A DNA stretch of 64,000 nucleotides from the NCBI RefSeq assembly GCF_054482525.1, contig NZ_CM137006.1, one strand, 5' to 3'. Of this stretch, positions 15,760-17,306 are shown piece after piece (position 1 is the stretch's first letter; every line of letters begins with the position of its first letter). Under the pieces are notes generated by a model. The model made no database searches. It saw only the letters and a list, made by a program, of their open reading frames with translations, and had not been told where the DNA came from. The translations under genes and the position numbers were made by a program.

Positions 15760-15826
15760 CGGATGCGGCGTAAACGCCTTATCCGACCTGGCTGGAAAGC
15801 AATCGTAGGCCGGATAAGATGCGCCA
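15760..15826. repeat. REP palindromic units flanking the IS insertion (left side)
   Basis: ccggatgcggcgtaaacgccttatccg, then gtaggccggataagatgcgcca abutting the IS end; the other half of this palindrome (gcatcgcatccggcg) resumes at 17262. Confidence 0.6.
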
Positions 15827-15858
15827 TGAACTGAACCCCAAAACCTGGACAGTTTCAG

Positions 15859-16581
15859 TTAACCGGCTTTTTGATGCTCAGTCCGGTATTCTACCGGACT
15901 GAGTCCCCCAAGACTGAGTTTTATTCTTTTTTGATTCCAGTAAGTTATGTATTCGTTAACGGCATTTTCCAGCTCTTCTACATTTCTGTAGTCCCGGCGA
16001 TAGTACATTTCTTCTTTCAGGTGACCAAAGAAGTTCTCCATTACCGCATTATCAAGGCAGTTGCCCTTGCGCGACATGCTCTGCACTAACCCTCTGTCCG
16101 CCAGGGCGGACTGATAACTTTTTATCCGGTAATGCCATCCTTGATCACTGTGGAGCAGCGGTTTCTCCCCTTCAGCAAGGCTTTCCAGCCCCTTATTTAA
16201 CATCCGCTTCACCAGCTCCTCTGTAGGCCTGCAGGCCGTTTCCCACGCCACGATTTCCCCGTTAAACAAATCAAGTATCGGGGACAGGTACAGTTTTTGT
16301 CCGCCAGCCCTGAATTCGGTGATATCTGTCACCCATTTCTCACAGGGAGCTTCCGCTTTGAACTGCCGCTGAAGGATATTTTCTGCAGCGAGTCCCATAT
16401 TTCCCCGGTAAGACCGGTATTTCTTCAGGCGCACAGGAGACTTCAGGCCGAGCTGTTGCATCAGTTTTCGCACCGTTTTGCCACTGAACTTAAGACCTCT
16501 TTTCTGAAGCTCACAATGGATCCGCCGGTACCCATAACATCCCCGGTGTTCATGGAAGATGGAGGCTATGAGCTGTTTCAC
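15859..16581 (-). CDS. IS3-family transposase OrfB (DDE integrase core); probably expressed as an OrfAB fusion by -1 frameshifting
   Basis: 240-aa ORF with integrase-core residues (HSDQGWHY...); the frame stays open upstream toward orfA; A-AAA-AAG slippery heptamer on the minus strand near 16725-16735. Confidence 0.8.
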   Translation of the reverse strand: MKQLIASIFHEHRGCYGYRRIHCELQKRGLKFSGKTVRKLMQQLGLKSPVRLKKYRSYRGNMGLAAENILQRQFKAEAPCEKWVTDITEFRAGGQKLYLSPILDLFNGEIVAWETACRPTEELVKRMLNKGLESLAEGEKPLLHSDQGWHYRIKSYQSALADRGLVQSMSRKGNCLDNAVMENFFGHLKEEMYYRRDYRNVEELENAVNEYITYWNQKRIKLSLGGLSPVEYRTEHQKAG

Positions 16582-16685
16582 ATCAGCATACTTGTCCTTA
16601 GCCTTCTGCAGTGACAGCTGGTAGTACAGCGTGCTTCTGGCCAGCCCTGCAGCCTTTAACAGGTCAGACTGGCAGTGTCCGCACC

Positions 16686-17216
16686 TCAGGCTCCGGATGA
16701 CTTTCGTTTTTTCTCCAGCTCCTGGCGCTTTTTTTCCAGGAGATGCTCCTGCATGGCTTTCAGATATGCATTTTCTGCGCGAAGATAACGCAGCTCATTC
16801 TTCATCTCTTCCGGCGTCATGTTTGCCTCGTTTTCATGGGTATCATCAGAACGGGTCATGCTTTTCTCCTTCCTGCGCCTGATAAAGGCCTCATTACCAG
16901 ATTTGCGGTAGCCTTTTATCCAGTTTTTAACCGTGTTGTGGCTGGGAATGTTAAACCGGGCAGCTACCCGGGGTAGAGACTCAGAATGCCCGAGAGCATA
17001 AAGAACCACGCAAAGTTTATCTTCAGGAGAATAGCTACGCTTGTGTCTGCAATCCAGTGCCCGAGGACCGTGAAGAAGAAAAAGATTAATCCAGTGTGAG
17101 AGGCTGGTGTGAGAAAGTTGAAAGAGTTTTGCCGTAGAAATGATGCCTGCATGACCAGCCAGGTAGTGATTTACAGCGGCAAGTTTTACTTCAAATGAAT
17201 GTTTCATAAACTGCAC
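16686..17216 (-). CDS. IS3-family transposase OrfA (HTH DNA-binding, leucine-zipper-like C-terminus)
   Basis: 176-aa ORF; helix-turn-helix N-terminal half and coiled-coil KKRQELEKK C-terminus typical of IS3-family OrfA. Confidence 0.8.
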   Translation of the reverse strand: MQFMKHSFEVKLAAVNHYLAGHAGIISTAKLFQLSHTSLSHWINLFLLHGPRALDCRHKRSYSPEDKLCVVLYALGHSESLPRVAARFNIPSHNTVKNWIKGYRKSGNEAFIRRRKEKSMTRSDDTHENEANMTPEEMKNELRYLRAENAYLKAMQEHLLEKKRQELEKKRKSSGA

Positions 17217-17306
17217 CTTCAGATGTCAGATTATGTCCAACATTTGGGGTGCAGTTCACCAGCATCGCATCCGGCGATCAGGTCGCACGGTATCAACGAG
17301 ATAAAA

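Follow-up and report, generated by a model that had tools for sequence, protein, structure and literature searches.

An intact and probably active IS1397 copy at the apex of a REP palindromic unit between caiE and caiF in Escherichia coli

The DNA analysed here is a stretch of 64,000 nucleotides from contig NZ_CM137006.1 (RefSeq assembly GCF_054482525.1), referred to as a whole as the window. It carries the convergent genes caiE and caiF, whose intergenic DNA holds a BIME with an uninterrupted REP/palindromic unit next to caiE and a second unit, nearest caiF, which is the sole unit split by an insertion sequence (IS). The genes and palindromic units are as follows:

15163..15753, plus strand: caiE coding sequence, intact, with its stop codon 73 nt before the IS (PCN033 RefSeq annotation mapped to the window; open reading frame)
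about 15758..15789, no strand: first REP/palindromic unit of the BIME, CCGGATGCGGCGTAAACGCCTTATCCGA, uninterrupted, directly 3' of caiE
15805..15826, no strand: left half of the target palindromic unit, GTAGGCCGGATAAGATGCGCCA, joined directly to the right half in strains with the empty site
17262..17276, no strand: right half of the target palindromic unit, GCATCGCATCCGGCG
17307..17702, minus strand: caiF coding sequence, intact, with its stop 48 nt before the IS and co-directional with the transposase (PCN033 RefSeq annotation)

The initial annotation, made from the sequence alone, had held that the insertion leaves both coding sequences whole; this is the case, and the CaiF protein accession (WP_000333125.1) is common to this region and to K-12. 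It had also described a 1432-bp IS3-family element with imperfect terminal inverted repeats, an orfA/orfB pair, an A-AAA-AAG slippery site and flanking CCA repeats, all of which are present in the sequence. The range it assigned, 15760-17290, does contain the element but takes in flanking DNA as well, the element itself being 15827-17258. Its parts are:

15827..17258, minus strand (transposase strand): IS1397, complete copy, 1432 bp (near-identical full-length E. coli copies are annotated as IS1397 family)
15827..15851, no strand: IRR, the orfB-distal end, 25 nt, TGAACTGAACCCCAAAACCTGGACA
17234..17258, no strand: IRL, the orfA-proximal end, 25 nt, TGAACTGCACCCCAAATGTTGGACA on the minus strand
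15824..15826, no strand: CCA target-site duplication, left copy (a single CCA in empty sites)
17259..17261, no strand: CCA target-site duplication, right copy
16686..17207, minus strand: orfA, a helix-turn-helix protein of 173 aa, with its ATG at 17207 and its stop at 16686
15859..17207, minus strand: orfAB frame, 449 aa via a -1 frameshift, with HTH_28, HTH_21, rve and rve_2
16729..16735, minus strand: slippery heptamer A-AAA-AAG, followed by a predicted stem-loop

The two ends are imperfect repeats, complementary at 21 of 25 positions, which start with TGAACTG and have TG...CA termini (TGAACTG...CAGTTCA). A 16-nt motif of these ends has two sites in the 64-kb window, where chance would give 0.11, and these are the two ends of the IS. 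Three-frame translation of the element shows that orfB is open in the -1 frame relative to orfA and ends at 15859. Both frames overlap at GAA-AAA-AAG, where a slip of one base back yields a predicted 449-aa fusion identical to the RefSeq protein that carries the PGAP note 'programmed frameshift'. The fused transposase has the Pfam domains HTH_28, HTH_21, rve (E = 3.8e-21) and rve_2 and reaches 387 bits against NCBIfam NF033516, the IS3-family equivalog with a cutoff of 160; this score and these domains support the assignment to the IS3 family. As in that family, OrfA and the fused OrfAB would be made via -1 ribosomal frameshifting at A-AAA-AAG, and transposition presumably proceeds by a copy-out/paste-in route via a circular intermediate. 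A perfect 12-bp hairpin at 15877-15903 was considered as a terminator and rejected: it lies within the final orfB codons, has no T-run and was missed by the terminator scan.

The identity of the element as IS1397, proposed initially, is borne out by public records. For the identical DNA between caiE and caiF of E. coli PCN033, RefSeq uses the name 'IS3-like element IS1397 family transposase', public collections file the exact 449-aa protein under the same name, and a copy from CFT073 has 99.0% DNA identity to the element in the window. The name as used here is taken from the RefSeq annotation and the CFT073 identity, not from the ISfinder reference. Tobes & Pareja 2006 (PMC1525189) reported that CFT073 carries IS1397 twice, with one of the copies clearly within a REP; the CFT073 copy retrieved here measures 1427 bp, is annotated as frameshifted and lies within a palindromic unit, with a 3-bp duplication. 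The length of 1432 bp is shared with 12 of the 14 other measured copies, and the off-length ones comprise two that are interrupted by other inserts and the 1427-bp copy of CFT073. Of 5426 complete E. coli genomes, 1707 contain full-length copies that are identical or near-identical; matches per genome, full or partial, rise to at least 40 and are nearly all chromosomal.

Compared with IS1397 as described by Bachellier, Clement, Wilde and Hofnung (1997-2003), the element agrees in its RefSeq name, its 1432 bp, its TG...CA inverted repeats, its orfA/orfB arrangement with a -1 frameshift, its duplication of 3-4 bp and its insertion into the loop of an E. coli palindromic unit. It differs in nothing substantive: it is about 1% away from the CFT073 copy, and the caiE-caiF site is a rare one. 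IS1397 with its targeting of REP loops is already known biology. Further REP-targeting IS elements exist, however, and the insertion might belong to one of them, such as ISKpn1 or the IS110-family IS621. Judging from the titles of the papers on it, ISKpn1 of K. pneumoniae is likewise an IS3-family element with palindromic-unit targeting carried by the transposase, but these titles tie it to Klebsiella and to palindromic units of a different type, whereas the targets found here are of the E. coli type. IS621, an E. coli element, shares REP-specific insertion, but it has an unrelated DEDD transposase and inserts 3' of the REP, outside the inverted repeat, rather than in the loop. The architecture found here is of the IS3 family and not of the IS110 family, the RefSeq name is IS1397, and the element is 99% identical to a copy in a genome whose copies are called IS1397 in the paper cited above (PMC1525189); a REP-targeting element other than IS1397 is highly improbable at this site.

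The copy might also be a dead relic or an assembly artefact rather than a live IS at a genuine site. Assemblies often collapse or misplace IS elements, and degeneration is common among IS copies: that of CFT073, for example, is frameshifted in its annotation, and some are split by other IS elements. Against this, four independently finished genomes show the same junctions at 100% identity. The window copy retains both ends, both reading frames and the slippery site, its target duplication agrees exactly with the empty site, and identical copies of it are present at other loci. The assembly artefact is already refuted, and the alternative as a whole can be given very little credence. Because it is 100% identical to copies elsewhere, e.g., the one between trmL and cysE, the IS1397 copy in the window is likely still active.

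Removal of the element together with one CCA gives GTAGGCCGGATAAGATGCG-CCA-GCATCGCATCCGGCG, a contiguous REP/palindromic unit in which 12 of 14 positions are paired around the 4-nt loop GCCA. The unit agrees with the definition of a REP within a BIME, an extragenic imperfect palindrome of about 35 nt with GCCGGAT...ATCCGGC arms that recurs across the genome and is accompanied by a second, oppositely oriented unit; the other unit here lies at about 15758-15789. The CCA is duplicated, and in the window copy the midpoint of the duplication is 0.5 nt off the palindrome centre. A 600-bp query representing this empty site matched strain E300010 in a single contiguous stretch at 99.8% identity and was matched over at least 80% of its length in 5392 of the 5426 complete E. 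coli genomes (at a median of 4 places per genome, via the BIME repeat). The target unit is intact in ST131, in which one flanking base differs, and identical in O157:H7 and BL21, so the earlier claim that the flanks rejoin into one REP unit holds. The alignment with K-12 that had been suggested as a check is ambiguous, since the caiE-caiF BIME of K-12 is 33 bp shorter and its corresponding unit is degenerate (GCTGGATAAGATGCTACAACATCGCATCTGGCA), but other strains show the exact empty site. In BL21 derivatives, the BIME carries an additional 90-bp copy of a two-unit module; the caiE-caiF BIME is polymorphic among strains. The filled junction was found in only six of the 5426 genomes: PCN033, SCU-102, 19KM1776, JNE21-003, DETEC-P881 and AR_0077. 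PCN033 and the window are 99.98% identical, and the window has one extra IS, which marks it as DNA of a close relative of PCN033. On this reading, the transposase cut the GCCA loop of the second caiE-caiF BIME unit with a 3-bp stagger, thereby duplicating CCA; the insertion entailed no loss of host DNA and left both flanking genes whole.

According to work known to us through secondary citation (Clement 1999; Wilde 2001, 2003), IS1397 is specific for palindromic units, and this specificity is determined by its transposase. Other insertions were sampled by looking up the exact OrfA protein, which led to ten distinct genomic places picked blind to their flanks. Both ends of the IS were located in nine of these, and together with the trmL-cysE and CFT073 copies they make up 11 other loci, every one of which has IS1397 in the middle of a GCC(G/T)GAT...ATC(C/A)GGC palindrome. 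When the four sequenced caiE-caiF insertions are included, the set comprises 15 sites, all within a palindromic unit, and the midpoint of the duplication lies no more than 1.5 nt from the computed centre in 14 of them. The one outlier, the degenerate trmL-cysE unit, has an unreliable computed centre and an offset of about 0.5 nt when judged by eye. The duplications are 2-4 bp long, units of both the CCGGAT type and the CCTGAT type are used, and neither orientation with respect to the asymmetric palindrome clearly predominates (6 vs. 5). These 15 sites, along with the specificity reported in the secondarily cited work, agree with the hallmark initially ascribed to this element, insertion specifically into REP/palindromic units, and the IS1397 transposase targets the apex of such units. 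A possible orientation bias was also considered, as a co-directional gene lies upstream of the transposase in all sampled copies; it was dismissed, this arrangement being automatic between convergent genes.

The caiE-caiF insertions are not all alike. The duplication is the 3-bp CCA in the window and in AR_0077 and the 4-bp GCCA in DETEC-P881 and JNE21-003, the IS copies are 7-18 positions away from that of the window, and the flanking DNA diverges by 1-2%. Such differences in the duplications, the IS and the flanks indicate that this loop was hit independently at least twice, and probably more often. The orientation is shared by all four sequenced insertions, an outcome that would arise at random in about 1 in 8 such sets. 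Repeated insertion at one target is unsurprising for an IS that is limited to a few hundred palindromic targets per genome.

What the insertion might do to the transcripts of the flanking genes is less direct. It had been suggested that the element replaces the convergent terminator region; this does not hold, as nothing is deleted, no intrinsic terminator is predicted and the REP on the caiE side is untouched. A scan of the caiE-caiF intergenic DNA for intrinsic terminators found none, and therefore the 'convergent terminator' can only be the BIME; a promoter scan of the IS ends also found none. The empty BIME has a strong predicted RNA fold on both strands. The first REP unit (about 15758-15789) is paired in the fold of the empty-site RNA and conserved in other strains, and caiE retains this REP of its own. 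For caiF, the 3'-UTR REP hairpin would be lost, and the transcript would then continue into the IS, sense to the transposase gene. A literature search on the 3' ends or REPs of caiF and caiE returned nothing relevant. A 2026 preprint describes REPs as context-dependent terminators and mRNA stabilisers with variable effects, and it finds a REP between two convergent genes to be correlated with higher expression of both. Because REPs act in such a context-dependent manner, an effect of the insertion on caiF is possible but unpredictable, and the altered caiF transcript ends suggested initially are speculative.

The insertion could, for example, be functionally important if the split REP altered termination or stability of the caiF mRNA, and with it the carnitine regulon, in which case its recurrence would reflect selection. 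It is the caiF-proximal REP that is split, the stretch from caiF to the IS has no predicted intrinsic terminator, the preprint assigns REPs terminator and stabiliser roles and a link to convergent-gene expression, and the same unit was hit in at least two independent events, all in one orientation. However, the insertion occurs in so few of the 5426 genomes that there is no sign of a sweep, recurrence is expected when the palindromic targets number a few hundred, a shared orientation in all four cases is hardly exceptional at about 1 in 8, and the REP effects in the preprint are variable. We regard functional importance as unlikely and a near-neutral effect as most likely, with the consequences for the caiE and caiF transcripts deduced rather than observed. 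In all, we put at about 95% the probability that 15827-17258 is an intact, probably active IS1397 copy at the apex of a REP between caiE and caiF, with a near-neutral effect.

Transcripts that enter the element from caiF would meet a further feature at the start of orfA:

17204..17261, minus strand: predicted RNA hairpin, present only in transcripts entering from caiF (fold z-score -4.3)

In this hairpin, the tip of the IS, GAACUGCACC (IRL), is predicted to pair with GGUGCAGUU, covering the Shine-Dalgarno sequence and the AUG of orfA, and none of 200 shuffled sequences folds as well. Blocking translation from outside transcripts is a known IS strategy, which the predicted hairpin resembles, and the pairing of the tip with the ribosome-binding site (RBS) probably blocks translation of the transposase from caiF read-through RNA. 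In distant elements with the same ends, the complement of the element's own end also lies just before the ATG. A more far-reaching scenario is that the caiE-caiF unit is a site hit repeatedly, at which an IS1397 oriented like caiF rewires the caiF 3' end and alters control of the carnitine regulon in some lineages; caiF read-through might then couple the transposase to anaerobic induction, unless the tip-RBS hairpin blocks it. We consider this scenario quite improbable.

Beyond correct annotation, the locus has little importance, as it holds a known element at a rare but unremarkable site. It is nonetheless a clean example of how an IS can land harmlessly between convergent genes by way of a REP hairpin, and of one palindrome that has taken up independent insertions in different E. 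coli lineages. Were the split REP to alter the fate of the caiF mRNA, the locus would offer a natural test case for the proposed roles of REPs as terminators or stabilisers.

The ends of IS1397 recur far beyond E. coli. With one genome per species, the 25-nt end pattern has at least 120 exactly matching stretches in remote taxa; among these are Bacteroides, Neisseria, Burkholderia, Proteus and Streptococcus, as well as several MAGs. True IS1397 DNA was found in E. albertii only, among the matches listed in this 25-mer scan of one genome per species. The matches elsewhere are unrelated elements of the IS150 group (IS3 family) from many phyla. These share the exact 25-nt terminal sequence with IS1397, and many have the complement of the end before the start of orfA, whereas their remaining DNA is barely alignable with it. 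The presence of this complement before the orfA ATG in many such elements suggests a conserved hairpin that hides the RBS.

Other copies and relics of IS1397 were encountered as well. A copy 100% identical to that of the window lies between trmL and cysE in eight of eight sampled, unrelated strains from various hosts and countries; these strains are the top IS matches in the E. coli collection and represent the same locus eight times, which illustrates the wide spread of this copy. This copy may be old and widely inherited, and a possible donor for the caiE-caiF insertion. GCA_900149875.1 has two IS1397 copies in which a transposase gene of the IS110 family (DEDD) lies inside IS1397 or directly behind it; one of them measures 2803 bp, and the far end of the other was not located. 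The copy in GCA_000692635.1 extends to 1791 bp through an extra insert. In K-12 MG1655, an unannotated 65-bp relic of the IRR end of IS1397 (95% identity) lies in the yhhJ-yhhI intergenic region, and the relic is also found in approximately 1,780 other E. coli genomes without a full IS1397. In K-12, it abuts half of a palindromic unit (TAGGCCGGATAAGGCGTTTA|TGAACTG...) and is truncated next to yhhI, a gene of ISEc1, and thus an ancestor of K-12 once had IS1397 in a REP.

Elsewhere in the window, positions 40986-42322 hold a 1337-bp insert that is absent from PCN033. It has IS186-like ends (CATAAGCGCTAACTTAAGGGTTG...), an ORF for a 372-aa transposase and a GC-rich target duplication, and it adjoins the hokC/sokC locus, with an Rfam sok match at 40660-40812; K-12 presumably also has an IS186 beside hokC. 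In PCN033, yaaU is an annotated pseudogene with an internal stop, which maps to about 3341-4735 of the window on the minus strand, and the PCN033 genome carries a chaperone-usher fimbrial cluster and espX1 between nhaR and rpsT.
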